Notes: generated from the sequence alone by a model not told the origin. Shown: positions 8,510 through 36,210, counted from the first letter of the stretch. The stretch is 64,000 nt of DNA from Rhodospirillales bacterium (GCA_038143065.1 JAYQLI010000038.1:1-64000), one strand, 5' to 3'. Program-made: numbers and translations.

Positions 8510-8642
8510 TTCGCCCCCACATTCGCCCCCACAAATTTGTAAGAACATATGAGAATTATCTGGCACTAGTGAGAATAAGTGAAGTATAAAATATCAATAA
8601 AATATTGACTATTTAGTATATATGAGACTTTCGTTTCCGCCA
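8510..8642 (+). mobile_element. Right end (att) of element A: arm-type repeats plus tRNA-3'-like core
   Basis: TTCGCCCCCACA twice at 12-bp period next to the integrase start, AT-rich spacer, then TTCCGCCA at 8635-8642. Confidence 0.6.
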
Positions 8643-8949
8643 TTAACCTAAAGATAACAGTACGTTATATGCAAGCCTCAGTGCTACCCATTATATAACC
8701 CACTTATAATGCGAATGCTTCATTTTCTGCCAATTAACTGAGAGCCCGATTCAGCACTTCTAAATCCATTCAATGGCTATGTTGTCGTTCGTCGCGAGGT
8801 ATATTTGAACTAGGGGGTAGAGGGACCGATGGGGTGGGGCATGGCCGTGCAAATAGGTATCCCGTTCACTTCAAACGCCAATTTTAAAAAACAATTTAAG
8901 GTTGTATTGATTGTAATATATAAATTATGAAGACCATAACAGCGTACAA

Positions 8950-9163
8950 TGCAGTGGCTTAGGCGCGTGCACAGGTTACAGAAATTCGCTCCAATCCATG
9001 CTTCGTTTCACAATCTATTCAATTTGCAAAGATCACTCTCAAAACGCAGTACATTCAAACTTAATCGTGACGCTGCTCTCACCGAGTGGCGCTCCTTAGT
9101 GACCCCGTAGAGTTAAGCTGTCTTATGAATACCGATGCTTAGGCTCCTTTGTCTGACAGCACC
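8950..9163 (+). mobile_element. IS6 family remnant (transposase 3' end and right IR)
   Basis: Near-identical to 38770-38880; ends TTTGTCTGACAGCACC, an IS6-type IR. Confidence 0.8.
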
Positions 9164-9471
9164 ATTTGCAGCATCCCAAGTGCTATCTTCTGGCAGACGA
9201 TCTAGTGCAAGTTCCAGCTCAATGCGCTGTGCATCGGATATATTCGGTAAGACCAATGCATCTAGGGCTTCTACTCCACCTCAGGCAGCCATCACTCGAA
9301 GATTTCCATCAATGATGCGATACGAGCGATCTACAAACAATTGGCTTGATAATGCCTAGTTCAGCAAACATCTGCACTGCTTTACGCAGTTGCTTTTTAG
9401 TATGACGTCGAGCCGGGGAATTTGAACAGTGAAGTTCCCCAATGCCCAACGATGCTGTAGTCACCTTCATG
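9164..9471 (-). pseudogene. ParB/Srx-like N-terminal domain fragment truncated by IS6
   Basis: Across frameshifts: RRHTKKQL...LGIIKPIVVD...IIDGNLRVMAA...ELALDRLPEDSTWD. Confidence 0.6.
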
Positions 9472-9712
9472 GCAACCTCCTATCGTTAGAGAATGGTCAC
9501 TTCACTTTGAAGTACGAACTGAATTTTACTCAGTCTATGGCATGCTTGCGCTGAATTCAAACCAACCACAAAATCATGGCGTGAAAAAGGGTGTAGTTCT
9601 TAAAATTTGCTGAGCTATGTATGCTTTGAAGATAGCGGTTCATTCGTTTTCGGATGCTGTAGCGAAATGTACTAACAGCACCTGAGCCAGGCATAATCGT
9701 TTTGTCATCACA

Positions 9713-11270
9713 CTATCTCATACTTGTAGGCAATAAAGCGTCAGGTATATTTTGGCAGCTTACAGGCCGCAAAAACCGTCGAATTGATAATGTTCCAACG
9801 GATGTGTGACCTAAAAGTTAGTAGACGCTGGATATGGTCCACCGTGAACCATCGCATCACAAACCTCGACTCCTAGCGGGGAAACCATTTGAAGCGAGAT
9901 ACGGCCTGCTTTACGCTCCAAAATCGGCTATCAGGCTTCGTCCTTCTTCTGTATCACCCATACCCATATGAGATCGTGCATGTCAATTGTCCTTGCAGGC
10001 TTTTGGCAACAGCAAGCATTTCATTAAAATCTCCGAACTGTTGCTAAACAATGCCCAGAGGTCCGAAAACTTCCTCTGCAAGTTCATGATTTTTCAGCCA
10101 ATCGTCTCCAGTCGTTTGATAAAGATATGGTGTTGCATTTCGCATATCACAAACAGAAGTTAGTACTTCTTGCACACCGACCGATTTGGCTACGCGATCA
10201 CGCCCTGAGCGGTAGGCCTCTGCAATACCGTCCGTAAGCTGCTGTCTGCGCCGGCGTCTTTTCTAATGCACTTGCCGCTGCGTCGGTAAACCGAGAGAGC
10301 ATCATCCCCTGCCACAACAACTGCAATTCCTGGATTGGTACAAAATTGCCCTGCACTCCATTGTCAGAGAGGCAGCCCCATCCTGATGCGAGCTCATCGC
10401 CGCGTGCAGCCAAAGCGTCTGGAAGCATGAACATTGGATTCTACAGACCCCAATCCTCCAAAAAACGGAATAGGGCTAGTCGCGCTGAGCGCAAAGGTCA
10501 AAAAGTGCACGTCACGCCCCCTAACCACGACCCGGTAAAACCGGACTGCATTCATCAAAGGATGCTGCACAAGAGCTGTCCCCACATCCCACGCTTGCCA
10601 CCTTGGATCAAACTAAACACACCAGCGTGTACACCACATTTATTAATTGCTGCATGGACTGCTTCAGCAACAATTTCACCTGTTCCAGGATGCGCTGAAT
10701 GCCCTTTAACTACTACAGGACAACCTGCGGCTAACGCCGCCGCCGTATCCCCACCAGCTGTCGAGGGCGCAAGGGGAAAATTAGAAGCCCCAAACACTGC
10801 CACAGGTCCTATAGGGCGTTGGACCATTTTGATATCTGGACGCGGTAGAGGTGCACGATCTGGTAATGCAACATCATGCCGCTTATCCAAATATGTACCT
10901 TCTAAAAATGTGTTGCGCAAATAGTCTAAGTTGACCTGTTGTCCGACCTCGTTCACCTTCAAGTCGAGCTTCTGGCAAGCCTGTTTCTGATGTTCCGATC
11001 TCTGTTATTTCAGCTCCGCGAGCATCAATCTCATCGGCAATAACATTCAATAAAGAGCCGCACGTTCTTCAGCTGAGCTATAGCCAAAGCTCCAGAATGC
11101 TTCTTCCGCAGCCTGAACTGCAGTATTGACCAATTCTGGCGTTCCAACAGAAAATGTATGATAATCTCCATGAGCTGGACTCACGACTTTCAAAAACTAT
11201 TTGCACCTTGGACCCAAGTACCCGCAATTAGATGCTTACCATGAGGTTTGAATTTTATATTTTTCGTCAT
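9713..11270 (-). CDS. NADP-dependent aldehyde dehydrogenase, alpha-ketoglutarate semialdehyde dehydrogenase-like (frameshifted)
   Basis: [48 protein letters not shown] and [11 protein letters not shown] motifs. Confidence 0.85.
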
Positions 11271-11383
11271 GCCATTTCGGTCCTTTAGATTGATTGTTCA
11301 TTTCAAATCGATCGCGTCAAAATTGCGATGTATTTCAGATCATGAGCTTTTAACTAACTCAGTTTACTACCTAGCGTCGATTT

Positions 11384-12293
<910 letters not shown>

Positions 12294-12304
12294 TGTAATC
12301 TCCT

Positions 12305-13117
12305 TTATTCATGAATTCCATCACCACAAAATGCTCCTCCCTGATATCGTGAATTTACGTCATCTTTAGGTGTGGCGGTGGCATCGCTGCATCGATTTTC
12401 GCTCGGAAGACTTCCGCGTTATCTTTTGGGTTCCATCCGAGATATCCTACTTCACGATTATCCCACCAACTGGCCGAATTCGCGGACGCGCCATAGATGA
12501 TCGGACAGCCTAATCGCCGGAACAAGAAATATACGTTCGACTATTACCACAAGGTCATCGCGCCTCATCCAGTTGACAACATCCTATGGTTTTTCGGTTC
12601 TGGAAAACAGGATCCAATCCGAATGCTGGCGGTTTCAATCCCGAATTTATCATAATACATCGATGCAAGCGCCTCACCAAAAAACCTTTGACACGCCATA
12701 AAGACCATCTGGCCGTGTGGTTGATTTTGCATCCAATCGGAGCAGTTTGTTCTGTGAAATCCAATGGCGTGATTTGAATCCTTGCGAAAATGATCCGAGG
12801 AGTAATTGGCGATTTCCGTGCTGCTTCGTAAAGATTAAACATTCCATCTAAGTTTGCATTACGAATGACCTCCCAAGGTGGCTTCGGTAGATTGGCCTCC
12901 CATGTGCGCAATTCCGTCACATCCATGGACCACATGGCTTCAACGAGCCTTTTTTATCACCGAGATCGCAATATACGATTTCCCCATGTGCTGCAAAGCG
13001 TCGCCCAATCCTTTTCGAGGCAGAGATACGCAATTGTTCAGCCAGATGTGCTAATCGGGTACGACATACCGATCCTAAACCCCCATTAGCTCCAGTTATT
13101 AAAAGTTTTTTTAACAT
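12305..13117 (-). CDS. udh: Uronate dehydrogenase-like NAD-dependent epimerase/dehydratase (frameshifted)
   Basis: LLITGANGGLG Rossmann motif, ANLDGMFNLYEAARK, RIGSCFPEP; adjacent to kdgD. Confidence 0.75.
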
Positions 13118-13136
13118 ATCTACCTCTTTCTTCAAT

Positions 13137-13960: not shown

Positions 13961-15135
13961 CATGTGTAGCCTGTCGATCCGTCTGGTCGCATCGGCAGTT
14001 TGCGTTCCCAGTGCACATATTGATCGGTTTGTAAGTAATCTTCATCTATTTCGACACCCCAACCTGCTTTTTCTGGTCTTGGATGCAAATAACCGCTCTT
14101 GGGGATATATGGATCACACACATATGCGCTGGTATTTTCATTGGTAGGTGACGTTAACCCTAAAAATGCGTTAGAACCCGGAAGTCGGTACTCTAAGATT
14201 TTAAAGTTTGTTAGTGCCATACAAAAATGAAAATTTATTGCTGTAGCGAGTGGCCCCATTGGGTTATGAGGTGCTACATTCAAATAGTAAGTTTCCGCAA
14301 TTGTTGCAATTTTTCGCATTTCTGTGACACCACCCACGACGCATATATCAGGTTGAATAATGTCGGCCCCTCTAGCGTTGATGAGTCGTGCAAATTCGAA
14401 TTTTGAATAGAGACTTTCGCCAGTAGCCAGTGGCACCTAAGTTGTGATTTAAGATCCCCCATAATTCTATGTTTTCAGGTCGCATGGGTTCTTCATAAAA
14501 AAGTGGATTTAAGTGTGCCAAAGCGTTTCCTAAATCTCTCGCTTGCCAAGGCTCAAACAATCTTGCATGCGCATCATAAGCAAACTCAAATCCTGGGCAA
14601 AGACTGTGGGACCTCGTTCGCCCATTCTGTTGTCGCAGCGAGTGTCTCGCCCAGGGCACAGCGTGGATATCGGTCCGATAGGGAGACATTTTGAATGCGC
14701 TTAAGCCATATTGTTCATTGGCAGCATCAACTTGCTCTTTTACTTCGTTTGCGTCCGGTGCTGTGTAAAGCCCTAAGTATACTCTAACTTTATCACGCAC
14801 GTTGCCCCCCAACAGCATATAAACTGGAACGTTAAGTGCTTTTGCCGATATGTCCCATAGTGCATGGTCGATTGCAGACATGGCGGCTAAACTTAGTGAA
14901 CCGGGTGGAAATCGCGCATGTTGATAAAGTTTGAGCATAATTCGCTCAATTTGGCGAGGATCTTCGTTTTGGATTTGGCTGAATAAGTATTCTAATATGG
15001 GCTTTAATGCACGATCGTAACCATGGTTATAGCATTCACCCCATCCAGTTAGATTTTCGTCCGTGTCCAAGGCAACTAGCACTCGAGGCCGGTTTCCATC
15101 ACGCGACATGAACATCTAAGCCGAACGATCTTCAT
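13960..15135 (-). CDS. Mandelate racemase/galactonate dehydratase-like enolase-superfamily enzyme
   Basis: GWGE, SAIDHALWDI, FYEEP, ATGE, IIQPD and APHNPMGP motifs. Confidence 0.85.
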
Positions 15136-15139
15136 GTAA

Positions 15140-16031
15140 TTATCCCGCGAATGGAACCTGGGGTATACCTTTGAATTCCCAGGTCGTGAATTGCAAACAG
15201 ACTACCCGCATCCGGCTGTTCTCTTTTGCAGGATCTAACCCCATGCTTAATGAGGTAACGTATAGAATATCGAGATTTTCACCGCCAAACATTGGTTTTG
15301 TTGGTTTTTCGATCGGAACATCTATTGTGAGCAGATAATTCACCTTCAGGCGAAATACGATAAATTTGCCAACCTGACACCCCGGTTTCGCCAGTAGCAA
15401 CCATCAGCGTCTACTGTTCCGCCATCTGGACGGCCCGCTACGTTTTGCGTGTCGAAAAACAATCTTTCATTCGTTGGCGTGCCTGTCTTAACATCATAGT
15501 CATACGACCATATTTTTCGAACCTCAGCATTACTATCTGAGCAATACATTTTGCGACCATCTGGAGAAAAAATGCCATTCCGTTCGTTGTGAAAAAACCG
15601 TCTCTCCATTTCGTAACGCTTAAATCAGGATCTAACCTGTAAAATGCTCCAACTTGCTCTGAAGCGCTCCCATCCTTCATCGTACCTGCCCAAAAACGAC
15701 CTTGCATATCCGTTGCTCCGTCGTTGAACCGATTTTCAGGCATGTGTTCTTCTGGGTCTAGTATTGCGGTTCGAAGACCTGTTTCTGGATCAAACAACCA
15801 GAAACCAGATTTAGCTGCTAAAACCAAGCCACCATTTTTCGCGGAGCAAGGCAGCCTACTTGGTTCATTGAAGTCATAGGTTTCATTTTCTTCATTATTC
15901 GGACAATATTTGTGGATTAGACCGCTGACGATATCGACCCACCATAAACATTTTTGATGAACGTCCCAAAATGCGCCCTCACCAAGTTGAGAATTGGTTT
16001 TTGCCGCAATTTCGATCCGAATGCTCATCAT
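15140..16031 (-). CDS. SMP-30/gluconolactonase family lactonase (frameshifted)
   Basis: LGEGAFWD, RFNDGATD..GRFWAGTM and GRPDGGTVDADGCYW motifs. Confidence 0.88.
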
Positions 16032-16747
16032 TTCCCTTAAAAACGCGTCTCTCAGACCCATCGATGTGCTCTTGCCATAGCTGTACGAGCGGCATCTGGG
16101 TTGTTCTTAGCTATGGCATCGACAATTAGGGTCATGTTCTGAAACCATACGCATGCCGCGTCGATCACCTGATACTTTTAAGCTGCGCAGGAAGTGGCCA
16201 ACAAAATTCCACTGGGGTGTTAACAACTCTATTGTTTTTTAAAAAAGCGGTTGTTTGACAGGTTTGCTAAAGTTGTATGAAAGTTGATATCTGCATTTAT
16301 AGCATCTTCGCCTTTTTAAAAGGTTCTTTTTACCTCATCGGCTGAAGTTAGCACCGAATTTCAGCATATGATGCGTTTTCAGCAGCGTAAGTTGCTGCAG
16401 CGGCTTCTATCACTCTGCGATATTCGAAATAGTTTGAAATATCTTCGATGCTAACCAGTTGTGTGAAGCTGACTTGGTCATTTGGTATGCCTGAATTTAC
16501 ATAAGAACCAGAGCCTTTTCGCGATATTATCAATCCAGAGACTCTTAATTTTGAAAGAGCTGCTCGGACAACAGGTCGTGAAACTTTATGTTCTGCACAC
16601 AAATCGTTTTCACTTGGTAGTTTCTGACCAATTTTAAATGTTCCAAATCGGATCTTATCCAATAAGTCCCTATAAACTTGAATTTCGAGGCGATCATCAG
16701 TCAATTCTGCTTGACCCAAATTTTATCACAGTGGGGTCTTCAAGCAT
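16028..16747 (-). CDS. FadR/GntR family transcriptional regulator
   Basis: KLPSENDL...VSRPVVRAAL..L...G wHTH; FCD-like ADINFH C-terminus. Confidence 0.85.
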
Positions 16748-16860
16748 ACCAAGTTTTCCTTACTTATATTACAGCTTATTAAAAGATGTTTGACAAGTAA
16801 AGAGTCATCGTGTCAGGGTGAGATCACTAAATAGCCAATAAAACAAATGGGAGACATTTG

Positions 16861-18761
16861 ATGAACTTACCTACACGTAAATCCATTTTAGCGTCTTTAG
16901 CTATTGGCGCGCTTATTGCCCCGGTGGTGCCCTTGCTTATCAAGACGCGCCTTCACTTGCTGGTAAAGGTTTGCCCTCTGTGGCAGAGCGTTTACCTGAT
17001 CAACCGGTCATATCGCCATTAGCAGATATAGGTACCTATGGTGGCACAATCCGTCGTTTCCTGTCGGGCTCTAATGATCATAATTCAATTTTTACGTTTT
17101 GTAAGTCCCAGGACTAACTCGTTGGGCGGCTGACTTTAGCCAAGTTGTCCCAAACGTTGCGGAGAGTTGGGAAACTTAATGACGATAGTAGCGAGTTTAC
17201 ATTTCGTCTTCGCAAGGGAATGAAGTGGTCTGATGGTCATCCCTTCACTGCAGACGATATCATGTTCTTCGTAGATGATTTGTTGCAAAATCCAGAATTT
17301 TATCCGTTCGCTCCCGCAAGATTTGTTGTGGGTGGAGATACAATGACAGCAGAGAAATTGATGATTATACCGTCAAGTTGAAATTCTGCGCCATATGGAG
17401 CATTTTTGACTGAGCTAGCTACGCCATTGGCTCAAGAGCCTATCCTATGGGCAAAGCATTATTGTCAGCAGTTCCATCCGAAGTACAACGCTGACGTGCA
17501 GTCGATGATAGATCTGACAGAAGCCGTCGATGATTGGCCAAGTTTATTTCGCCTGAAATGTGGTGAGGTTGAAGCTCCTAACAGGTGGTCAAACGCTGAA
17601 CGCCCTACATTGATCCTTGGGTCGTAACGGGTGACGGTTACCCGCTGGATCAACACAAGTTATGATGGAACGCAATCCATATTTTTGGCAGGTAGATACC
17701 GTTGGCAACCAATTGCCTTTATGTTGATACTTTGCAGTGGGGGTGTTTCGGCAAGATAGTCAGGCGATCTTGCTCGAAGCAATAGCCGGAAATGTTGATA
17801 TGCAAGCTAGACGAATTGCAAAAGTCTTTCAAACTTACCGGTTCTTATGAAACCAAGAGAAAGGCGGATATAAACTCTATGAACGCACTGCGGCAGATTC
17901 CAACGATATGGCATTGCACTTTAACCATACGCACAAGGATCCCGAAATGCGTGAACTAATCCGTAATAAGGATGTACGGATTGCACTATCTCTTGGTATC
18001 GATCGTGAAGAGATAATCGATATCGTTTATCAGGGTGTTGGTGAGCCATGGCAAATTGGGCCGCTTCCGCAGCATGTACTGTATAATGAGCAGCTCGGTC
18101 GACAATATACAGACTATGATCCTAAACGCGCTAACGAGCTGTTAGATGCAGCTGGATACGATAAGAAAAATGGCGACGGCATTAGGCTTTTCCCGAGCGG
18201 CAAGCCCATCATTTTCAATGTTAATTTTCGAGTTGAAACTCCGCAGACAGTGACAACCTTGAAATTATCAAAGAACAATGGACAAAAATTGGGATTGGAT
18301 TGAATGCTACTAGTGTTGAACGGTCCATTTACTACAGCCGTGGTGAGGCAAACGAACATGACTTCATGGTGTAAGCTCCCCGGAGGTTTAGATCCAACTT
18401 TATCACCACGTGATGTTTTGGCTGTGCACCCGCAGGCTAGCTGGTTCGCAATTCCTCCTTGACCCGTTGGTATCTGTCAGGGAAAACCGAGGGAGAAGAA
18501 CCGCCCGCGAGCATGAAGAAACGTCTTGCTCTTTATGATCAGTTCAAGGCCGAGGCAGATCCTGCGAAAGCACTCGATATATTCCGTCAAATTCACCAAA
18601 TTGCTGCGGATGAATTTGAGATATTTGGTATAACGACACGCCCGAGTGCCTTTGGTGTTGTGAATGCCAAATTACGTAATGTACCAGAAGCCATTCCTGG
18701 ATCTTGGATGTACCCTGATCCCGGTCCAACTCTCCCGCAAACTTACTACTACGCTGAGTAA
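16861..18761 (+). CDS. ABC transporter substrate-binding protein, family 5 (frameshifted)
   Basis: LPSVAERLP, FRLRKGMKWSDGHPFTADDI, RIALSLGIDREEI motifs. Confidence 0.85.
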
Positions 18762-18773
18762 GGTTTGAAACTT

Positions 18774-18797
18774 GCTGACCCCATTATTGGGGTCGGC
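18774..18797 (+). terminator. Stem-loop after the SBP gene (mRNA stabiliser/attenuator)
   Basis: GCTGACCCCA-TTAT-TGGGGTCGGC hairpin. Confidence 0.55.
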
Positions 18798-18826
18798 ATC
18801 CTCTATTTGGTGCAGTGGAGTTTTTT

Positions 18827-19813
18827 ATGATCTGGCGATATATACTTAAGCGTGTCTTATGGATGATCCCATTCATGTTTGCGGTTTCCATTGTTGCGTT
18901 TATTTTAATCCAAGCACCTCCAGGAGACTATTTAACCACCTATATAGCTAAATTAGGAGAGTCGAACGAACTGCTAGATCAGGCGTCTGTCGATAATTTA
19001 CGAAAGCGGTTTGGTTTAGATCAGCCATTATATGTCCAATACTTCAAATGGGTTTCTAATCTAGTTCAAGGGGATTTTGGGATGTCATTTGAGTGGCGTC
19101 AACCAGTCTCTGACCTCGTATGGGAGCGCATGGGACTTACTCTATGTTTGAGCTTTGCAACCTTATTATTCACTTGGGCAGTTGCATTCCCTATCGGTGT
19201 TTATTCCGCCGTTTATAAATATTCAATTGGTGATTACATTGCTACTACGATTGGTTTTATCGGACCCGCTACTCCAAATTTTTTACTTGCTCTGGTATTA
19301 ATGTATATTGGGGTCGTTCATTTTGGTACCGATGTTGGGGGGCTTTTTTCTCCTGAATATAAGAATGCTCCATGGTCAGCAGCTAAAGTTTGGAATTTAG
19401 TGGAACATCTTTGGTTGCCTGTGATTGTATTAGGCACGTCTTCGACCGCCAGCCTGATAAGAATTATGCGTGCAAATCTTCTTGACGAGTTGTCAAAGCC
19501 ATATGTTGATACTGCTCGGGCGAAAGGCGTTTCAGAGTTTTGGCTTCTTGTTAAATACCCTGTTCGAGTGGCCCTAAACCCATTTATTTCAACGATTGGA
19601 TGGGTTTTGCCAAATCTAGTTTCTGAGCTGTTGTAACGGCAATCGTTTTAAGCTTCGCCTACAGCGGGTCCACTGATGCTGCAAGCACTCTTATCTCAGG
19701 ATATGTATCTAGCGGGAGCGTTTGTACTTTTGCTGTCGTCCCTTACCGTGGTTGGCATGCTCATTTCTGACATATTGTTAGTGTTACTAGACCCTGAGTC
19801 CGATATGAGTGAT
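18827..19813 (+). CDS. ABC transporter permease (DppB/OppB-like)
   Basis: GLDQPLYVQY...GDFGMS and YVDTARAKG motifs. Confidence 0.88.
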
Positions 19814-23495: not shown

Positions 23496-24638
23496 AAATT
23501 ACGGCCGTTAACGTAAAGACTTTCCACCATAAAACTAATACAGTGCGCGATAGTGACGGACACGGCATCCTGGCCCATCAGGGATACTACTTCTGCAGTT
23601 TTAACCATAGAAACTGATGCTGGAGTTTCTGGTAGTGTGGTTACACGGGTTGCAGACGGAAATGAAGCCATACTCGACCGATTTGTTCGCCCCAACGTTA
23701 TTGGTGAAGATCCGTTATGTACTGAAATGCTCTGGTATAAGATATATAAGTGGCAACGTTTAGGTGGTGGTTTATTGACAGATCGTGTTTTGGCTACGGT
23801 CGACCTGGCACTTTGGGATTTGGAAGGGGAAGGCTGCTAAACTGCCTGTATGGAAACTTTTGGGTGGTTATCGTAGCAAGATATTGGCTTATGGATCGAC
23901 CACGTGCGGCGACGATCTGGAAGGTGGTTTGGCGACACCTGACGACTATGTCAGCTTCGCTGAATGGATGGTAGGAACACGGATATAAAGCTGTTAAACT
24001 TCATGGCTGGATGCCTCCAGTCCCAGGTGCCCGGATGTAAAAAAAGACTATAAAGCCTGTGCCGCTGTACGGAGGCCGTTGGCCCAGATATTCCATTAAT
24101 GCTGGATCCCCACCATTTTTATTCCCGGACTGAGACACTATGGCTTGCAAATAAACTTGCTGAACTTGATTTCCGATGGATGGAAGAGCCGATGGAGGAA
24201 GCATCGATCAGTTCATACAAGTGGCTTACGAAGAACACACCTTTAAATATTCTTGGCCCTGAAACAATGACGGGAAAGCATTGGATACGTGCGGGAGTGG
24301 GTGAAACAGGATGCCTGTGATTTGGATCCGGACAGGGGGTGTTGGGATGTCGGTGGAATCACACCGGCTATGAAAGCAGCCAACATGTCTGAGAGCTTCC
24401 ACATGTCCTGCGAGGTGCATGGAACCGGTGCATCAAACTTATCAGTTGCTTTAGCGGTCCCTAATACCAGTTTTTACGAGAGGGCTTTTGCACCCGTTTA
24501 TAGATTATGAGGTGCCAAAAGAATACCAGAACCGGATTGATGACGAAATGGACGCAGATGGTTACGTCCACGGGCGTGAAGAGCCAGGTTTGGGTCAGGA
24601 TTTAAATTGGGAATATATCGATGCTAACCTCGTCTGAC
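23492..24638 (+). CDS. Mandelate racemase/enolase-superfamily protein (frameshifted)
   Basis: DLALWDL, KLH, WMEEP and CEVHG motifs. Confidence 0.8.
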
Positions 24639-25871
24639 ACTCGTATTGCTGAAGTTCGGGTAACACCGATTGCATTTGCCGACCCACCATTGCTAAACAA
24701 TGCTGGTTGTCATGAGCCATTTGCTCTCCGATCGATAATCGAAGTGGAAACTGAAAGTGGTATTGTTGGTCTCGGCGAAAGTTATGGTTCCAAATCTGTT
24801 TTAGACGCACTCGCTGATTTGGTCTTGAGCCTTCCTGGCTTAGATATAACGGATCTAAATGGTCTTAGGCGTAAAGCACAAAATTGTGTTAATAATCACC
24901 AATCCTTTTACGTTGAGAATGAACGTTTGCTACCTCGTGTGGTTGCTGCAATTGAAGTAGCGATGTGGGATGCATTGGGAAAATCGACAGGGCATAGAGT
25001 TTGTGATCTTTGGGGGACAGGTCCGAAGGTCGGTACCATTTTCTGCATATCTTTTTTATAAATTTGGGCAGCATTTTGGTGATTATTCCACTGATATGCG
25101 TGGGGTGAGGCACTCTCTCCAGATGGACTTGTTGAACAGGCCGGACGTATGAAAGAAATGTACGGCTTTGTGCCATAAAGTTGAAAGCCGGCGTCTTTGA
25201 TCCGAAGAAGAAATTGAAGGATGAGAAGCGTTGAATAAAGCCTTCCCAAATTCACCACTTAGGATCGATCCAAATGGCGGATGGACGGTTGATACAACGC
25301 TACGTTTGCTGCCAAAACTCGATGGTTTGATCGAATATCTCGAAGACCCTACCGTAGGGATCGACGGTAATGCGAAAGTACAAGCAGCCACTGATATCCC
25401 TTTGGCTACAAATATGTATGTAGTTTCTCAGGACATCTGCCCCAGAAACATGTCAGCTGATGCTTTCAGAGTAATCCTGAGCGATCATCATTATTGGGGT
25501 TACAGGCTAGTCGCGAACTTGCACAAATTTGTAAGATTTGGGGGTTGGGTCTGTCGATGCATTCCAATTCTCACTTAGGAATTTCGTTGGCAGCTATGGT
25601 TCATCTAGCTGCAGCCACTTCAAACCTGACCTATGATTGCGATACACATTATCCTTGGCAGACGGATGAGATTATCGAAGGAGGAAAACTACAATTTCGA
25701 AATGGAGCTTTAGAAGTGCCTGAGGGGCCTGGTTTAGGGTGACTCCTAGATCGCGCCGAATTGAAACGTTTGCATCAAAACTATCTCGATTGTGGAATAG
25801 TAAACCGCGATGACGAACGCGAAATGAAAAAACACATACCTGATTGGGAATTTGCGCGACCAAAGTATTGA
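24621..25871 (+). CDS. Glucarate dehydratase family protein (frameshifted)
   Basis: IAFADPPLLN..G.HEP, SAYLFYK, RIDPNGGW, YLEDP and MHSNSHLGIS motifs. Confidence 0.85.
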
Positions 25872-25874
25872 GAG

Positions 25875-27377
25875 ATGAAGAACGAACCACTTCTAAATCC
25901 ATTTAAACCAAGTTGATAATGTCGCTGTTGTAGCTAACGATCTTGGCCTGCCTAAAGGTACAGTTCTGACAGGTGGTTTGACACTTGCGAAAGTATTCCA
26001 CAAGGACATAAGATTGTTTTGACAGATTTAGCACCAGGTGATCCAGTCGTTCGATACGGGGTGTTAATTGCATTTGCTTTACAGTCTATTCCTCGCTGGT
26101 GGCTTGGTTAATGAAAAAACACAATCTTACCTGTTGCACCTGAAATAGACGCTTTGCCGATGTCAACAAATTTAGTTGATTTGGGGCCTGCGTTAAGCGG
26201 TGCAACATTTCAGGGATATTTGAATACTAACGGCAGTGTTGGCACTCGAAACCTTCTTGCTATTTCAACTACTGTTCAATGCGTATCGGGGATTGTCGAT
26301 CATGCCGTAAGTCGCATACGCACTGAAATTTTACCGAACTATCCCAATGTAAATGGTATTTTAGGGATTGAACATGTCTATGGTTGTGGTGTTGCGATTG
26401 AGGCCAAAGATTCAGTGATACCCATTCGTACATTGCATAATATTGCTTTGAATCCAAATTTTGGAGGCGAAGTCATGATGGTTAGCCTTGGTTGTGGTGT
26501 TGCAACCTGATCGATTATTTCCGGAATTAGGTGATGTTTCGATGCGGCTTCAGGATCAAACTGACTTGACGCGATGGTGCGGCATCATGGAAAGCCGAGG
26601 ATCATTTGGCACGTTTGAATTTAAGAAGACGTGAGACTTGTCCAGCTGAAGCTTTAATTGTGGGAATGCAATGTGGTGGCTCAGACGCTTTGTCAGGGGT
26701 TACTGCAAACCCTGCCTTAGGGGTTGCTAGCGATATGCTGGTCCGTGCGGGAGCTACGGTAATGTTTTCGGAAAATACTGAAGTTAGAGACGGGATTGCT
26801 CAACTTACATCAAGAGCTGCCACACCTAAAATTGCGCGTGAATTGATTAGTGAACTTACATGGTACGACGAATATCTGCCTCGCAGCGATGTAGATCGCG
26901 CTGCCAATACCACACCTGGAAATAAAGCTGGTGGTTTGTCAAATATTGTAGAGAAAGCGATGGGCTCTATCGCTAAATCTGGAAGTGCACCCATATCGGG
27001 CGTAATTCCTCCAGGTGAACGCGCCACAAAACAGGTTTAAATTATGCAGCGACGCCCGCAAGCGATTTTGTTTGTGGTACGTTGCAACCTGCCGCGGGAG
27101 CTACTGTACATCTTTTCACTACTGGGCGTGGAAACACCATACAGTCTTGAAGCGATGCCAACCATCAAAGTAGCAACTAATAACAATTTGGCTCAACGTT
27201 GGCATGACCTAATTGATGTAAACGCAGGCCCCATCGCAAATGGAGAAAAACCCTCTGAAGAGGTTGGACAACAATTATTTGACAAGATCTTGCAGTAGCA
27301 TCAGGCGAAAAACTTGGGCTGAAAAGCACGATACGCATAATTCTATTGCCTTATTCAATCCAGCACCGATCACATGA
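25875..27377 (+). CDS. garD: Galactarate dehydratase (UxaA/GarD family, frameshifted)
   Basis: SAF domain, [29 protein letters not shown] and [11 protein letters not shown] motifs. Confidence 0.8.
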
Positions 27378-28693
27378 TGCGGCCTCAATTAAATGCTGAA
27401 GAGGCAGTCAAGTTTGATAAAAACGAAGTATTAGGAAAAGAGAAGGATAAGCCCAGACCTAGAAGATACATTTGTTATTATGTTGGAGCATCCAAAAGTG
27501 GCGAGAAACGATCTTTCACGCTGCAGTCGGCATTTGACGCCGCGATTTGGGCAGCTCGTGAAGAGGCTATTCATGTATCAATATTTTTAGAAGATGGAAA
27601 TCATGAAGGCCCAGCGATTTTGCCGAAGATTGATGGCCTAACGGTTGCATTAAATGGAGATAATCCAGACGCCTGCATATTTTCATCTAACATTCACGCC
27701 AGAGTTACAGGAAAGGAATATTTTGATAGATTTGGTTTCTTGTTTAATGACAGTCCACCAGAAGTGAAGGAAATATTCCATGAAATCATCTCATATAACC
27801 AAATTGGTACTGGAAACAGCAGTGTTCTGCGAATAGCGCTGCCTGACACTAAATTGTCGGGATTTACAATTGAAAATACTTACAATTGCGATCGAACCCA
27901 AGATTACCCCCAGAGCCGGGTGCCTTGCGGAACGAAAAAGGTCAATGGTCAGACGAAACACACCAGGCAGTTGCTTTGATGCTTGAAAATGCAGATGCCT
28001 CCGAATGTTATAATTTGCGTTTGAGTAGTTATCAGGACACGTTATATCTGCAACAGGCACCGTGTTGCGTGAAAGCGGCTTACTATTTTAGTAATTGTGT
28101 GATTGAAGGAGACATTGATTTCATATTTGGACCGGCAACTGGCTATTTTGATAAATGTGAAGTTCGAACCCTTGGTGGGAGGTCACAAAATAGCTGGGTT
28201 ACAGCCGCAAGTACTTCAATAAATAATTCTTGGGTTCGTATTTAAAGATTGTCGTTTCACAAATGATGGGCGTGGCGCTTGTGCAAATAGTCGGTTCAAG
28301 CTGGGTCGGTATTGGTTCTCTGGGGTCAGGTTGACCCCTTATAGAACGTTGCAAGAAACTAGCTTCATTTGCCGTTTAGGTGATGAAAACCGATTTTCCA
28401 AATCCACCGGATATATAACTCAGCAAACTCTATTTTCGGTAGGACGATGTTATTCTTGGGTCACATATTGGCAATCATATCGATAGTATTGCTCCATGGG
28501 ACGACTGGAAGGGGTCGGAATTTCTGGCTGACGGAACATTTTCGCACCGCAGTTGGTCGCCATGGTTTCGGCCGGTCCAATTTAGGTTTCTGACATTCAT
28601 AAAAATTTAATTGATTGGTGTGACTACAAGAGATTGAATTTTAAAAAAACTAATGAAAATGTACTGATCGGGGAATTTCAAAACCAGCCATGA
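27374..28693 (+). CDS. Pectinesterase-like (CE8/YbhC) protein (frameshifted)
   Basis: HQAVAL, SYQDTLY, EGDIDFIFG and LGRYWF (LGRPW-like) motifs. Confidence 0.75.
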
Positions 28694-28783
28694 GATCATC
28701 CAACGTGCTATTATGATGAACTTTATAGAGAAACAAGCTGTATGCGGGGCGGCGAAACTGTCAATACGAGAATGGACAGTAGC

Positions 28784-29075
28784 TCATTTATATGGAGTAT
28801 CAGGCGGGAACGGTATTCCATAAAGGAACTTTTTGAGTTTAGCATCGTTTTCATCGCTATACCAAAAGCCATAGCTGGGGCGTTGTTTTGAAACAAGTCC
28901 TGCTAAATGATTAACACCCCAGAGCATTGCCTGATAGTTCGCGTCCATTTTGTCCTGACAGCCCATTATGTAGCCGTAATAGCCTTCGATAGAATCCGCC
29001 ACATTTTGCAATGCGTCGACTAGCGGTTGAGCTTCTTCGCGCAAGTCACTGTGCACTGAAAGTTGTAATTTGGCC
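28784..29075 (-). CDS. Hypothetical protein of element B
   Basis: ORF MAKLQLSVHSDLREE... co-oriented with the replication module. Confidence 0.45.
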
Positions 29076-29111
29076 ATTTTCTTGTCCCCAATGTTTGTGT
29101 GTTGCGTTTGT

Positions 29112-29456
29112 TCAATTCGGATACCACTTAGCGCGAAATCCATCCTCACTATTCGACCACTGCCGTCGTCTAATCCATCCGAGTTTTCGGAGAGCAGAAG
29201 CAAGCTCGCCCACGTGTGGCATGCCACCTTTTCGACCTTTCATGCGCACTTGCAGCTCTAGCAGGCTCAGCCCATTAGCTTGCGTTTTAAGAGAGATCGT
29301 ATCCAACACTTTTTGTAAGCGCGCATGTAGTGGGGAAAGCTTCGTAACTTCCTCACGATAGAGCAAAATTTGGCGGTTTGGGCCTTGCTGGTAGGAAACC
29401 AGAGCTGACAAAAGGCTGTCGGTGAAGTTTTTAGTGTCTCGTGATGAGTCGTCCAT
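29112..29456 (-). CDS. Hypothetical protein, possibly winged-helix
   Basis: RBS AGGAGG; ELASALRKLGWIRRR motif; downstream of the primase-helicase. Confidence 0.6.
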   Translation of the reverse strand: MDDSSRDTKNFTDSLLSALVSYQQGPNRQILLYREEVTKLSPLHARLQKVLDTISLKTQANGLSLLELQVRMKGRKGGMPHVGELASALRKLGWIRRRQWSNSEDGFRAKWYPN

Positions 29457-29570
29457 TTTCGCCTCCTGTTGTGATTTTTATCGAGCGCAACGCGCACCGA
29501 CATCATAGTGTTATAATATAACAAAATGCGAGCAATTTGAATCCCAATTATACGTTCTATTTAAGGTTAA

Positions 29571-29766
29571 TGCCTCAACTTATGGAACCAATACAAACAA
29601 GGTGAGGCAGCTAATTGTATATTAAAAATGGTGCGTTAGTGCCTTTGCCTCAGATGCCTCAGTTAAAATAAAACAACTCGAGAAAGGAATAAGAAAGCTA
29701 CAGCACGGTACAGTAAACAATGTGTAGATTTTCTTGATTAACTGAGGCAAGTGAGGCAATGAGGCA
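29571..29766. repeat. Iteron array, putative replication origin of element B
   Basis: TGCCTCA at 29571, 29646, 29655; TGAGGCA at 29603, 29743, 29752, 29760; AT-rich spacers. Confidence 0.7.
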
Positions 29767-29892
29767 AAACAAAAACACCGCTTGCACATCATCGATATTT
29801 TCGACTTAATTTTTGCATTTTCCTTTGCCAGTTCGGTTTCCGAGGAAATGGCCCATTTATCGTGGTTGCTAAGTGATAGGACGCGGATTTTG

Positions 29893-32225
29893 TTACCCTT
29901 TTGTAGTCCTGATTTGTTTGAGAGATTTTGCACCAAGTCGGATAGCTGCCCTTCGAACTGCGGCCGGTGATGGATTCTGCGTCGGATACAGAGCGACGTA
30001 CAAACCGAGTAGTTGCTGACTGGATGCAACCTCGGAACCAACGAGGTGGGCTGGATTTGAGAAAACGTCCGTGATCCATTCTTCCAACGCGCTTAGGCTT
30101 TCTCCAATCATTTGCACTTTAGAGCTTGTAAGCGGCGCTGGGGCGGTTGGCAGAAACTCATCGAGGTCGACATTATTGAGCAGATGACAAAGCAAGGCTT
30201 CAAGGCCGCCATTGTCGCGCCATTCAACAAAACTTCGATAAAAGCTTTGCTCAAGGGGCTGTGCGGTGACCTCATGAACGAAAAAACGACGGTCCTCTTT
30301 ATCGATGTGAATTGCATCATCATGGTTTGACAAAAAGACAAAGCTTGCAAAGTTTTCGACTGAATATTCAGGTTGGTGCTTTTCGTTAATGGTTACACTC
30401 GTACCAGTGATTAAGACCTTAAGCTGATCAGTTTCAACACGCCGGTCAGATGTCAAAACTTCATCGCCAATGACGAGTACCTTGTTCTTTAGCCAACCAT
30501 TAAAGTCGCGCTTCAAATCGCTTTGCGTGATCGTTTGGGAGTGATTAGATCCAATAATATCCCTGATACACTCAAAGAGTAGGTTCTTACCGACACCTTG
30601 GTTACGGCTCCAGACCAGTAAAGCGGTGTTCATTTTGTTACCTGGATATTTAAGCTTGAACGCAAGCCACCGCATTACATAATCTCGCTCTGAGGCGTTG
30701 GGAAACATGTGCTCTGAAAGCTTTAGGAAAGGGCTGATATCTCCTTTTGCAGGTGTTTTCTCAAGGCCGGTCCACAAGTTAATTGCATTACGAGAAGTAA
30801 TTTCACCTTCCGTTGGATCAAAGACAATGTCACGATGTGAACGGCGGTCACGGTGACCCATCCAAGCTTTTGATTTAGGCATAACCTTTGGCTTGTCTTC
30901 GGAGCCAACGCTTAAAAGATCATTTTGGTATTGAAGGTGCAGTTTGCTCGGCTCAATGAAGTCTTCAAACTCAAAGCGGTAGATGCTTTGTTGCTTTTCA
31001 ACCCACGCATATCTGCTGTTTAACTCGGTCAGCCAGGATTTTGTGTTTAGGGCTCCTACGGGCTTTTTACCGTCTGGTTCTGTTTCCTTGAGTTGTACAG
31101 CCTCGCCTTGAATTGAGCGCGCTTTCTGTGCGCTATTTTCATCCGCAACGGACATTCCCCCCTCACGAGCCATGTAGAACAGAGAGCCGAGTGTTTTTTT
31201 ACTATTTTGGTCTCGCGATGCGTCGCGTTTAAGCGCTTCATGGTAACGTTGCTCGGTGTCGTCGAAGCAATAACTACACATTTCAGGCGTCAGTGACATG
31301 CTAGTTTTATTACATGCTGCATAGAGTTCACCCGAAGCCCATTGATGTGCAATTTGGCGACCTCCTTCACCCAATTCTGTGGCAAGAATACTGGTCACAT
31401 CGAACCAATTGTGGCGAGTTCGCGGGTCAATGTATGGAAGGCATTCTTGGACGCGCAGCATTTTGTCTGCTGTAAATATGTTGATATCTAGGGGCGAATT
31501 AACATGGGGCGGGCGTGGTCCTAGTTGCCAATCTTTGTCTCTAATGGTCACGTTTAGTGATTTCGCCGGTGACGCTCTCAATGCATAATTTGATTGCGCA
31601 ATTTGTTGAATAATTGGTTTACGATCGATCCATTGATCAGGAGTAATCTGTAGCCCTGGTGAATTCACTATAGTCACCAAAAATGGCGTACCGATTAGCC
31701 CCTTTTTCTTATTCACCTTTTGGTGGGGAAGCCAGGTAAACGCATGATGCGGGTTAAGTCATTGATTGATTTGTCAGTATCCCAAGCTTCAATCATCTGA
31801 ATTTGCGCTTCTTTAAACTCAGCGAGCGGACAATCTTTGACAAGCCAATAGTTGTGATAGCGGCCAGGACTTGTCTCTACGACAATGTGTGGCGAATATT
31901 CATCAATGGGCTCTTGAGGAGCCCCATCCGTATCAACAAAAATCGCTCGGACGCGTTTTATATTGGCCTCTTTACGTCCACTAAAATCAGTTTCGTTTAT
32001 TGTGACAAAGACCCCAGCACCCTGTTTGGAAAGTGATGTTAGAGTTTGCCAATGCTTTTCAAGGCTTCCATGAAGCACTTTGTTCAATTTAGCAGACTTA
32101 CGATCGTGATTATCATCCAGCGTTTGAAAGGTGAATGCGGTAGCCTTTGGGTCCAAGAGTTGGAGAAAGCGCTTGGCCATCTCTAAGTCTGGGGCCATTG
32201 GCGAGTTTTTGACATGCTGTGTCAT
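29893..32225 (-). CDS. Primase-helicase (RepB-type primase + PriCT-2 + DUF5906/SF3 helicase); probably one gene split by indels, true 3' end probably near 29750
   Basis: AIFVDTD/ETSPGRYHNYW/RIMRLPG primase motifs; WFDV...W PriCT-2; QGVGKN Walker A, IGDE, FLSN. Confidence 0.85.
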
Positions 32226-32285
32226 GTGTCTGTTCCTTTCGGGAGGCAACACAAATTTAGGCCACGAAAGTGACGTCAAACTTGG

Positions 32286-32550
32286 TTACTGAATGTTCTT
32301 GTGTTTGTTAGGGCTTAGTTGCCGTTGAGATACGCGCGGACATCTCCAACGCGCCATCGGCTTGAGCTCTTGCCTAGACGCAGGGGCTTTACCAAGTAGC
32401 CCAGTTGTATGTCGCGGTAGATTGAAGATCGACTTCGTGATGCGAGCGTAGCTTACCATTTTTAGGTCAATCAGAGCGTCATTTGGAAGTGCCTCAAAAG
32501 TTCGAATACAATCTAAGTGCACAGCCAATTTATTTAGGTTTTGGTCCATT
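32286..32550 (-). CDS. AlpA family excisionase (frameshifted)
   Basis: FEALPNDALIDLK...SRSSIYR...SSRWRVGDVR across frames; adjacent to the integrase. Confidence 0.7.
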
Positions 32551-32789
32551 TTCATGGCCTCCAATTTAGTTCAACTGTGGGAAGGCAAGCTTGCTAAGCT
32601 CCAGCATTATCTGGTCAGCTTGGCTAATTCCGCGATGCGGTAGGAATGGGTGTGCAGCAAAGCGCCCATGTATTTGCCTGTCTGTATTGTGCCAGATAGA
32701 CCCAGAAAATGTCAATATGAAGTATTCAATATTTTTAGGTTGACTAAATCTTGTGCTTAACGGAAGTTTTCGAAAAAATCTTCAATCCC

Positions 32790-34020
32790 TTAATGCGATG
32801 AACGTATCTGGATGACAGCGCCCGGAGCATCGATGGCTCGTTCGCAATATTCTGCCCAAGCAGCCATTAACTTTCGGCGTTTTTCCATCAGCGTTCCTCT
32901 TGCATATGCGGCTTCGGCCTTATCCTTGAGTTGATGCGCAAGCGCGTGCTCAATGACCTCTCGGGAATGCTGTCGTTTCGCCAGCCCAGTCTCGGAAAGT
33001 ACTTCTGAAACCATGAGTCGTGACTGGCACTTCCATGCGCTTCAGAACTGCACCAAGTGTCATGTCAGACAAAACCCCACCTTGCGCTGCTTTAAACACG
33101 ATTTCATTACCTTTTCCCTGTGGGATTTCCGTCAGAATTTCGACCGCACGATCTGAGAGCGGGACGCGATGCTCTTTACGCGCTTTCATTCGTTCCGCGG
33201 GAATTACCCATTCGCGCTTTTTCAGATCAAATTCTTGCCACGTCGCTCCACGAACTTCTCCTGAACGTGCAGATGTCAGAATGAGGAACTCTAGAGCAAT
33301 TGCCGCTGTCCCTTTGCGCTCTCTCAGTCGTTTAATGAATGCTTCAATTTCATGATACGGCAGTGCTGGGTGATGTTTCACGACGCGGATCTTAGAAATG
33401 GAAGGTAGCGCGTTCTCTAAATTCCCCTGCCATCGAGCAGGATTTTCGCCATCTCGGTGTCCATGTACCTTAGCCCAGTCTAAAACCTTTTCTATCCGGC
33501 CACGTGTGCGTTTAGCCGTCTCGGGCGTTTTGTGCCAAATAGGCTTAAGAACCTCTAAGACATGGGCCAATTCGATGTCGTCCACTGCGAGATTACCCAA
33601 GACTGGCAGAGCATGTGTTCGAAGGGTATTTTCCCATTGTTGCCGATGTTTGGCATTGCCCCATTCGGATTGCTTGTCTTCCAGAAACTGACGACAGGCA
33701 TCCACAAAAAGTAAGCGCTTGCGTTGCGCTGCTCGCAACTCATCGTTACGGACTTTGCGTTCCTCGATCGGATCTATCCCAGCTGCAATCTTGCTTCGTA
33801 GTTGCCGAGCAGCTTCGCGTGCCATTGCTAGCGTAACTCCTGGATAACCACCTAAGCCGATATCTCTAACCTTATCTGCGATCTTAACCCGCAATATCCA
33901 AGAGCGCGCTCGCCCTCGGATTTGTAATCCAAGTCCTGGAACGACGCCGACAGCGTTAAATCCAGTTTTGTTAAGGCGCGAAACTTCGAGCGCAGACAGT
34001 TCTTTTGCGATCTTTGGCAT
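32790..34020 (-). CDS. P4-like tyrosine integrase of element B (one frameshift)
   Basis: GLGGYPGVTLAMAR, KHRQQWENTL, ARSGEVR, HGFRSTFRDW and LAH...AAYARG motifs. Confidence 0.92.
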
Positions 34021-34193
34021 TACCCAATATCCTACCCATTATAAAAATTGAGATTGGCTGAGACGCCGTGATACAGTATGTGACAGCTTTTATTTAATAT
34101 AACACATAAAAACAGTAACTTAAATATTAAATAAAGTGTTCATATGACTACACATGAGCTTATATATACTCAGATAAGTTAGATGCAGGGGGA

Positions 34194-34315
34194 CACCTCC
34201 TCCGCCACTTAGCCCAATACCAACAGGGCCAGACCTAACAAGTAAGCATCAGATAATACTCAGCTTTTAAACTAGGCGCTCATTGTGCCGCATCTGATTA
34301 CTGACCATTATGCAG
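34194..34315 (+). repeat. Left copy of ~120-bp inverted repeat containing a tRNA(Ser-like) 3' end
   Basis: CACCTCCTCCGCCA...CTGACCATTATGCAG is the reverse complement of 35529-35649 with a few differences. Confidence 0.9.
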
Positions 34316-35565: not shown

Positions 35566-35649
35566 CGCCTAGTTTAAAAGCTGAGTATTATCTGATGCTT
35601 ACTTGGGGAGTGGCCCTGTTGGTATTGGGCTAGAGTGGCGGAGGAGGTG
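35529..35649 (-). repeat. Right copy of ~120-bp inverted repeat containing a tRNA 3' end
   Basis: Reverse complement matches 34194-34315. Confidence 0.9.
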
Positions 35650-36077: not shown

Positions 36078-36210
36078 AGCCTGTAAACCACTTTAGGCTA
36101 AGTTTCGGGGTTAGATGACCGCCTTGTTGATCCTTAAAGGGTCAATGGTTCCTATAGAGATATATAGGAACCTGACCCATTAACGGTATTACTCCCCGAA
36201 ACTTCAGGCT
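36078..36210. other. Long imperfect hairpin in non-coding DNA
   Basis: Nested stems AAGTTTCGGGG/CCCCGAAACTT, GGGTCA/TGACCC and GGTTCCTATA/TATAGGAACC. Confidence 0.7.

Follow-up and report, generated by a model that had tools for sequence, protein, structure and literature searches.

The DNA analysed here is a window of 64,000 nucleotides (bases 1-64000) of the 96.6-kb contig C38 from a Rhodospirillales bacterium (GCA_038143065.1 JAYQLI010000038.1:1-64000; assembly G000, 4.63 Mb in 52 contigs). At the 3' end of a tRNA-Ser gene, integrase islands have probably inserted in tandem, and the interval 8629-34208 would be the second of them. This interval consists of a mobile core (28734-34208), an arm at the opposite end and, between them, a sugar-acid cargo that was probably captured with the help of an IS6-family insertion sequence (IS). 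Comparison with related genomes bears out the boundaries and the position of the cargo, so that the interval appears to be a real cargo island of a known kind; as a whole unit it is putatively mobile. An earlier reading made from the window alone (the sequence-only reading) had proposed a single excisable, satellite-like element of ~25.6 kb carrying a whole uronate-catabolism pathway, and its interpretation as a whole is partly supported.

The right end was placed at 34194-34208 (+ strand), where the putative attachment (att) core CACCTCCTCCGCCA(C) corresponds to the last 14 nt of tRNA-Ser(tga). This 14-15-nt fragment is identical to the tRNA 3' end in Thalassovita mediterranea (locus L023) and in locus L062, and homology with a second copy of the core on the same contig and with Thalassovita ends exactly at 34208. 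The left end, at 8629-8642 (+ strand), is formed by TTTCGTTTCCGCCA, a tRNA-Ser 3'-end remnant which aligns with the 3' end of the intact Thalassovita tRNA-Ser(tga), its TCCGCCA in register with the end of the tRNA. In a comparison by eye, 11 contiguous bases of TTTCGTTTCCGCCA are those of the tRNA-Ser(gct) 3' end in locus L061, and the remnant thus resembles another tRNA-Ser type. The TCCGCCA motifs at 8636-8642 and 34201-34207, which had been proposed as the cores of the two ends, were found at the positions given and are confirmed by this comparison as att-type ends for a better reason, namely that TCCGCCA is the tRNA-Ser 3' end. With both ends of att type, the sugar-acid cluster lies inside an att-bounded interval.

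No tRNA body was detected at the left end using ARAGORN, and 7-11 nt of the tRNA 3' end are all that is kept there. The four tRNA-Ser genes of G000 are all located on the main contig, and none has the acceptor stem of TTTCGTTTCCGCCA. The remnant stands upstream of int_A at a distance of 63-76 nt. This gene (7287-8566, - strand, in three frame pieces) encodes a second P4-type integrase and belongs to the left neighbour island, referred to here as element A. Pfam assigns Phage_integrase, Phage_int_M and Arm-DNA-bind_3 to the pieces 7287-7973, 7876-8283 and 8186-8593; identity to the core integrase (int_B) is 34-48% across three tblastn pieces, and the int_A region searched as DNA gave one weak match in 400 genomes. 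At the left, another integrase island has taken the place of the tRNA body, which points to a tandem array. The right end also has a 17/20 match at C35:1084234; this falls within an open reading frame (ORF) with no integrase nearby and was treated as chance.

The use of the tRNA 3' end can be followed in the relatives of the core integrase. A tRNA-Ser gene is held by 28 of 80 such loci, int-distal and on the opposite strand in 20 of them and directly upstream of int in the other eight. In 19 of the 20 int-distal loci an exact repeat of the first 14 nt of the tRNA 3' end is found upstream of int, at a distance of 163-249 nt (repeat length 14 nt in 17 loci, 15 nt in one and 45 nt in one). The repeat sequence tracks the host's own isoacceptor. 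The element sizes were 4.5-10.9 kb in loci which extend only ~11 kb past int, so that longer elements would be missed. Comparison of these loci shows a family that evidently recombines in the last 14 nt of tRNA-Ser and leaves the 14-mer at both ends. Integrase relatives in IMG/VR (46 loci) were all at most 55% identical.

The int-distal arm comprises ~310 bp (8643-8956, + strand); an ACCCA doublet occupies 8686-8702, and a GC-rich block at ~8812-8870 is conserved. Short-word BLAST aligned window positions 8683-8904 to a stretch of Thalassovita that lies downstream of the integrase by ~11 kb, with 69% identity across 232 nt and an E value of 1.8e-20. The matching stretch abuts the intact tRNA-Ser(tga) just past the end of locus L023, and in Thalassovita as well as in the window (34194-34207) the core terminates, beside int, in the 14 nt with which this tRNA ends. 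The arm also matches contig C15 of G424, a metagenome-assembled genome (MAG) labelled Candidatus Salinivivens marinus (Paracoccaceae), with 83.7% identity over 485 nt, and the junction between arm and IS6 sequence is common to both. A three-way alignment of the window, Thalassovita and G424 showed that the arm is conserved in all three genomes. It was not found beside tRNA-Ser in 25 Thalassovita relatives; because these match only from the tRNA 3' end and none matches the arm, the arm is taken on this comparison to be element DNA and not host flank. In the two closest relatives of Thalassovita the tRNA side stays syntenic over 2.2-2.4 kb and the far side is not syntenic, for which reason the 11.3-kb interval could not be shown as a single insertion. 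No second copy of the arm was found in G000 at blastn sensitivity.

The GC-rich block of the arm (window 8812-8870; L135 6470-6530; L138 ~2985-3045) is nearly invariant in the three genomes and has no Rfam match; Rfam gave nothing significant on the arm as a whole (best match E 0.49). A repeat of ~350 nt just outside the Thalassovita element (L023 9237-9585) has up to ~10 matches per genome in several relatives, with 72-91% identity.

An ACCCA doublet lies inside each end, at 8686/8698 and 34022/34034; the 12-bp spacing given by the sequence-only reading was correct, and its positions were one base off. The + strand of the window has ACCCA-N7-ACCCA at these two ends and nowhere else, which is not due to chance. 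The sequence reported as identical inside both ends, TACCCATTATA, was indeed found at 8685 and 34033, and the exact shared match is the 12-mer CTACCCATTATA at 8684 and 34032. Taken alone, TCCGCCA is at chance level, with 14 occurrences in the window (eight on the + strand and six on the - strand), two of which (15418 and 28995) fall between the ends. The pattern of a 12-mer pair with an outer shared 7-mer is likewise at chance level: it was seen for 92 of 139 pairs in the window versus 57-78 of 94-119 pairs in ten Markov simulations. No longer repeat linking the two ends was found. Within the family the doublet is enriched upstream of int: in 10 of 78 loci of relatives it stands just upstream of the integrase start (-19 to -39 nt), and in Thalassovita, G424 and the window it is also found 41-60 nt from the tRNA end. 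Such placement is the pattern expected of arm-type integrase sites, a function that we infer; the doublet at 34022-34043 (+ strand), just upstream of the int_B start codon, is likely to be an arm-type or regulatory site.

For the assignment of gene families, 150 ORFs of at least 60 aa from 7.0-34.6 kb were scanned with Pfam, and PHROGs and NCBIfam profiles were also used. The integrase gene of the core, int_B (32793-34020, - strand), carries the P4-type domain set Arm-DNA-bind_3, Phage_int_M and Phage_integrase on 32953-34038 and is 95% identical over the matched segment to the intact 410-aa integrase of Thalassovita; 95% identity over the matched segment was also reached on two MAG contigs. 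A 2-bp gap at 32962 shifts the frame of its last 58 residues. The AlpA-like gene (32318-32669, - strand) has a frameshift near 32451, and the 119-aa Thalassovita orthologue falls in two frames in a tblastn search. It is named through this orthologue only (PF05930, 21.9 bits versus a cut-off of 21; phrog_66, excisionase/regulator), the window copy having no Pfam match. Against the copies of Thalassovita and L025, a single base is inserted in alpA near 32451, and int_B shows the 2-bp gap, which also appears in comparison with the second copy. The primase-helicase region (29893-32279, - strand) consists of two ORFs overlapping by GTGA, with RepB_primase (188 aa) and DUF5906 (607 aa) assigned by Pfam; they match the N- and C-terminal parts of PHROGs DNA primase profiles of 750-855 positions, and the match to the P4-family primase TIGR01613 is weak (34 bits versus a cut-off of 108.7, NCBIfam). 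The non-coding gap after the primase gene holds an iteron-like cluster (29571-29766) of seven TGAGGCA in both orientations, out of 17 copies in the window, and is a candidate origin. The distal core end (28734-29456, - strand) has two small genes, of 98 aa (28784-29077) and 114 aa (29112-29456), with no Pfam, PHROGs or NCBIfam match.

No capsid, terminase, relaxase or type IV secretion system (T4SS) family was matched by Pfam among the 150 ORFs, in agreement with what had been stated from the sequence. The same scan gave no family of the capsid-size, packaging or interference genes of P4 and phage-inducible chromosomal islands (PICIs; sid, psu, delta, cos; terS, cpm, ppi). The right-end module put forward by the sequence-only reading is retained in its P4-type integrase, primase-helicase and iteron-like cluster, and its AlpA in the qualified sense given above; a satellite-like int-alpA-primase-ori module is supported.

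A second copy of the core is present at C38:88657-94234 (locus L021), 89% identical over int and alpA and 87% over the 114-aa gene, with an unrelated replicase. Its integrase is frameshifted at a different place from int_B. An IS6 copy begins 200 nt past its tRNA-Ser-like end, where a single C distinguishes the 13 nt from the 3' end of the tRNA-Ser(tga) of G000 itself. A third, partial copy (C49:29909-30218) holds the 98-aa end gene at 73% identity and is interrupted at 30218 by an IS6 insertion.

In the window, in Thalassovita and on G424 C15 the same order and orientation of core, variable middle and arm were found, with three different middles. The middle of Thalassovita (5.4 kb) encodes an HpcH aldolase, a hydratase, a CoA-transferase and an acyl-CoA dehydrogenase; two of its relatives have this acyl-CoA block elsewhere, with no tRNA nearby. 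The middle of G424 C15 (~10 kb) encodes an Na/Pi cotransporter, a phosphoesterase, a sugar-type ABC transporter, DeoR, HAD and Ldh_2 proteins, beside an intact integrase of 412 aa and a third type of replicase. The cassettes of the window and G424 are bracketed by IS6 pieces in the same orientation, and the Thalassovita element is without IS. The IS6-bracketed cassettes of the window and G424, together with the shared arm/IS6 junction, point to IS6-mediated capture or exchange.

In the window the cargo is bracketed by two remnants of IS6-family elements. The left one (8956-9163, + strand) is the 3' 205 nt with the right inverted repeat, 80-88% identical to the ends of fuller copies on contigs C48, C10, C32 and C38. 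The right one (28675-28718, + strand) retains 44 nt from the 5' portion of the coding sequence. Five IS copies of G000 match it at 86-89% identity, and to its left as well as to its right the metagenome contigs diverge. This bracketing argues for secondary capture, in which an IS6-mediated event most likely brought in the block of ~19.5 kb.

About 18 kb of sugar-acid genes between 10.5 and 28.3 kb could be confirmed at family level using Pfam and NCBIfam, where ~19 kb of sugar-acid uptake and catabolism had been claimed; as assembled, nearly every frame is broken. On the - strand, pieces of an aldehyde dehydrogenase and of KdgD (5-dehydro-4-deoxyglucarate dehydratase) at 10558-12308 (Pfam Aldedh and DHDPS; NCBIfam TIGR03249 on two pieces) are followed at 13963-16722 by an enolase-superfamily sugar-acid dehydratase, galactonate-dehydratase-like according to NCBIfam, an SMP-30/gluconolactonase and a GntR regulator (Pfam MR_MLE_N/C, SGL and GntR). 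The + strand carries an Opp/Dpp-type ABC transporter with a binding protein, two permeases and fused ATPases (16881-22624; Pfam SBP_bac_5, BPD_transp_1, OppC_N, ABC_tran and oligo_HPY; NCBIfam Opp4A/B/C-like) and an alpha/beta-hydrolase esterase (22476-23495; Pfam Abhydrolase_3, 5.7e-41). It continues with two enolase-superfamily dehydratases, one of them glucarate-dehydratase-like, and a galactarate dehydratase, all in pieces (23517-27295; Pfam MR_MLE and GD_AH; NCBIfam TIGR03247 and TIGR03248), and a pectinesterase fragment (27874-28242; Pfam PF01095, 1.3e-16). Few ORFs of the cluster exceed 300 aa, the esterase and a 364-aa ABC ATPase (21533-22627) among them. No relative of the esterase above 44% identity was found in 400 genomes of the class, and the metagenome contigs gave one distant match. 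The cluster is of the aldarate plus oxidative-uronate type, as judged from these family assignments. The whole uronate pathway of the sequence-only reading was not recovered: enzymes of the aldarate and oxidative branches are present, and neither a uronate dehydrogenase nor an isomerase-pathway enzyme was named in the cluster by the Pfam and NCBIfam scans.

The following history would account for these observations. The mobile core, with its integrase, AlpA-like excision factor, primase-helicase, iteron-like origin and two small genes, would have the ~310-bp arm as its opposite end, abutting the remains of the tRNA 3' end. The integrase may bind the ACCCA doublets on both arms, AlpA may direct excision and the primase may replicate the circle from the iterons. 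An IS6-mediated event would then have brought the ~19.5-kb block for sugar-acid uptake and catabolism between arm and core. In the simplest history, element A with int_A entered the tRNA later, replaced the tRNA body and left a hybrid core, which would explain why the present ends share only TCCGCCA.

Parts of 27.5-35.5 kb were detected in 20 public runs from eight marine or estuary metagenome studies. The contigs of four of these runs (X1, X5, X6 and X9) were aligned to 17.8-37.5 kb, uncovered parts being counted as no evidence; depths are sums over contigs and not copy numbers. The summed depth of the cluster was mostly 0.5-9 in bins away from the ABC-transporter ATPase genes. For the replicase part compared with the cluster, it was 35 versus ~3-6 in X1, ~6-12 versus 1-4 in X5, and ~11-23 versus 0-5 in X6; in X9 the two were about equal (~6-9 versus 5-7). 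A contig joint from 28658 to 36705 was set aside as unreliable because one of its sides spans just 21 letters. No junction of an excised circle was seen, the alignment having covered 17.8-37.5 kb and not the end at 8.6 kb.

Several observations weigh against the interval being one cargo-bearing island that moves as a unit. The left and right 14-mers match at eight of 14 positions (seven contiguous), the left end is a junction with another island, and int_B and alpA each contain one frameshift as assembled. No tRNA gene was found on the whole 96.6-kb contig, window included. The core also occurs without the cluster: neither the second core copy nor the Thalassovita element contains it, and the depth of the core is several-fold above that of the cluster in three of the four runs, from which it follows that copies at least 90% alike also exist without the sugar-acid genes. 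No contig bridging the cluster/core junction (28.65-29.2 kb) was present among the 32 pieces listed of 1081, so that the link between cluster and core rests on this assembly alone. Both cluster and core are absent from 40 relatives of the host genome; a plasmid collection gave no match to either of them. Among 15 more distant members of the family no metabolic cargo was found, restriction/defence or capsid genes being present instead. In three of the distant loci (L061, L069 and L090) capsid, portal, terminase or prohead-protease genes lie within 9-11 kb, as in capsid-forming satellites. Other loci encode Type ISP enzymes, or restriction modules of methylase and helicase accompanied by a second integrase-like gene. 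Of the single excisable element first proposed, the att-bounded cargo interval stands, and the single excisable unit is hypothetical, given the 8/14 ends, the left junction with another island and the int and alpA frameshifts. The notion of a metabolic-cargo satellite is supported by the cluster between the ends and by the other cassettes in the same slot of two close relatives, and is weakened by the cores that occur without the cluster.

Homology of the core with the other three copies stops at 28790 (Thalassovita), 28734 (C49) and 29103 (second copy). On the basis of these breaks and the lack of an end repeat, a compact 5.5-kb element with the cluster as a mere neighbour was considered; it was dropped after the arm homology obtained by short-word BLAST and the tRNA-Ser found just beyond the end of L023. 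The same breaks would also be expected if the two ends came from two different copies, the arm being the relic of an older element, the core a ~5.5-kb element minus its arm, and the cluster an IS6-borne block that never moved with the integrase. IS6 remnants at both junctions, the mere seven contiguous core bases common to both ends and the excess of core over cluster depth in three of four runs agree with this; moreover, the arm/IS6 junction would be older than the present cargo, since G424 shares the junction with a different cargo. We nevertheless consider such an origin unlikely, because the order and orientation of core, middle and arm recur in three genomes, in Thalassovita without any IS, and because G000 has no second arm. 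In addition, neither a repeat of the core 14-mer nor any repeat scoring at least 10 was found near 28.3-29.1 kb; a nearer att end at around 28.7 kb had been named in advance as an observation that would speak against the longer element.

The quality of the contig was considered next to this, as a misjoin of cluster and core at IS fragments in a low-quality long-read consensus would produce the same picture. ORFs of at least 200 aa cover 0.33 of C38 versus 0.75 of the 2.86-Mb main contig, and on most small contigs of G000 this coverage is 0.09-0.66. In the first 16 listed pieces of the cluster region from X1, X5 and X6 (10.2 kb; seven listed X9 pieces were left out of the count), the metagenome sequences show 69 gaps and 47 substitutions relative to the window, and two contigs from different studies over 24.43-25.13 kb show four gaps and no substitution. 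C38 and most small contigs of G000 therefore probably carry uncorrected long-read errors; since the differences are mainly gaps, the frame breaks on C38 are probably consensus or assembly errors, which makes the frameshifts of int_B and alpA uncertain as well. An earlier description of the sugar-acid cluster as pseudogenes was withdrawn for this reason. Frameshifts on C38 and the small contigs should not be taken as pseudogenes, and caution about the assembly is advised. A misjoin, which the failure of any of the 32 listed pieces to cross 28.65-29.2 kb would also fit, is nonetheless improbable: the IS pieces at the junctions (44 and 205 nt) are too short to mislead long reads, and the independent MAG contig G424 C15 shows the same arm/IS6 junction and overall layout. 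Lastly, a chance resemblance of the ends with no element boundary at 8.6 kb, to which the frequency of outer shared 7-mers (92 of 139 window pairs; 57-78 per simulation) might have pointed, is refuted as far as such comparisons go by the arm homology beside an intact tRNA-Ser (E 1.8e-20), the tRNA register, the 14-nt rule in 19 of 20 relatives and the doublet that occurs only twice in the window.

The reading of 8629-34208 as the second member of a tandem array, with core, arm and IS6-captured cargo, is accordingly preferred. The element is most useful for what the three genomes together say in favour of an exchange of cassettes at an IS6-marked slot; they offer a testable picture of cargo exchange with a conserved core and arm, an IS6-flanked slot and a 14-nt core sequence that follows the host tRNA. 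If the whole unit moves, a small satellite-like vehicle would be spreading, among marine heterotrophs, a multi-gene pathway that breaks down sugar acids, pectin-derived ones included. More tentatively, a marine, Rhodobacterales-like clade with P4-type integrase, AlpA and primase may use the last 14 nt of any tRNA-Ser, swap nutrient cassettes at an IS6 landing pad and travel as replicating circles. If this were true, cores with 91-95% identical integrases would ferry sugar-acid, phosphate/sugar-type uptake or acyl-CoA cassettes between hosts.

Two further features lie to the right of the interval. At 34194-35649, a tyrosine recombinase gene that starts with a DUF6538 domain at the N-terminus of its product (34310-35536, in four frame pieces) lies between 122-bp inverted repeats with 94% identity, and each repeat has as its outer 15 nt the tRNA-Ser fragment that ends the core. 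The summed depth of this region in the four metagenome runs was very high, at 25-305 (34225-34881 bin) and 75-876 (35539-36195 bin). At 38.2-47.3 kb two IS6-family copies lie 8.4 kb apart in direct orientation, a layout like that of a composite transposon; the GC content of the segment is 0.51-0.61 versus ~0.45 around it, and it holds 5-oxoprolinase-type genes (CT_A_B, CT_C_D and LamB_YcsF) and TRAP transporter genes.

Among known systems, the cargo can be compared with the pseudo-compound transposons of the IS26/IS6 family, in which cargo is flanked by pieces of the same IS in direct orientation. Here too, the same IS6-family element (DDE_Tnp_IS240 on the fuller copies) flanks the cargo in direct orientation; in contrast to those transposons, only remnants of 205 and 44 nt are left, their outer parts are missing and no target duplication is readable.

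The core resembles phage-inducible chromosomal minimalist islands (PICMI; PMC10803314) in its integrase and its DUF5906-type primase, DUF5906 and DUF3987 being the primase families of the PICMI search model, and may do so in its candidate alpA, which is named through the orthologue and frameshifted in the window. A core of ~5.5-6 kb with few small genes of unassigned function, no capsid or packaging genes and a marine habitat are further points in common. In the same account, PICMI elements lie downstream of fis with 17-bp repeats, have a minimal size of ~6-7 kb and carry no large cargo, whereas here a tRNA-Ser site, 14-nt repeats, a core of 5.5 kb and a 19.5-kb cassette in an att-bounded interval of 25.6 kb were found. 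The ORFs scanned around the two ends gave no Fis-family match; both ends consist of tRNA-Ser fragments, and the PICMI site feature is absent there. PICMI excision, replication and packaging are induced by a helper phage; for the present element IMG/VR yielded no close relative (46 loci, all at 55% identity or below).

VPI-2 of Vibrio cholerae (PMC3014918) is a long-known tRNA-Ser island with a tyrosine-recombinase integrase, AlpA-like factors, direct repeats and a sugar-acid (sialic acid) catabolism cluster. These features of a metabolic tRNA-Ser island are also present in the window, the repeat being imperfect (8/14). VPI-2 differs in its size of 57 kb and its non-replicative circle, as against the primase-helicase, the iteron-like origin, the compact core and the slot that varies between close relatives in the present case.

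The sequence-only reading had called the element a tyrosine-integrase analogue of tycheposons. This rested on a wrong premise: 910 of 937 tycheposons carry tyrosine recombinases, and they insert at tRNAs, Ser-tga being one of seven sites (Hackl et al., bioRxiv 10.1101/2020.12.28.424599). A tyrosine integrase at a tRNA site is thus no distinction. The likeness takes in nearly all structural traits: a site-specific recombinase, tyrosine or large serine in tycheposons and tyrosine here (by Pfam), a small integration module next to a primase/helicase replication module (here RepB_primase and DUF5906), tandem arrays and decayed copies beside the tRNA, and a marine habitat. It may also include insertion at a tRNA between a full and a partial tRNA copy, for which there are here the 14-15-nt fragment at the right end, the 7-11 nt without tRNA body at the left end and 19 of 20 relatives in the family. 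Swappable nutrient-related cargo of at least 10 kb between the mobility module and the far end has its counterpart in the genes at 10.5-28.3 kb and the other cassettes in L023 and G424. The differences are that tycheposon integrases form a separate clade, whereas a P4-type domain set with AlpA is found here, which suggests that int_B lies outside that clade; that here the intact tRNA is at the int-distal end and the cargo is bracketed by IS6 remnants; and that the closest labelled relatives of the present element are in genomes of Rhodobacterales and not of cyanobacteria. Should the tentative proposal of a cassette-swapping clade be true, its members would be the heterotroph counterparts of tycheposons with a defined mechanism of cargo exchange.

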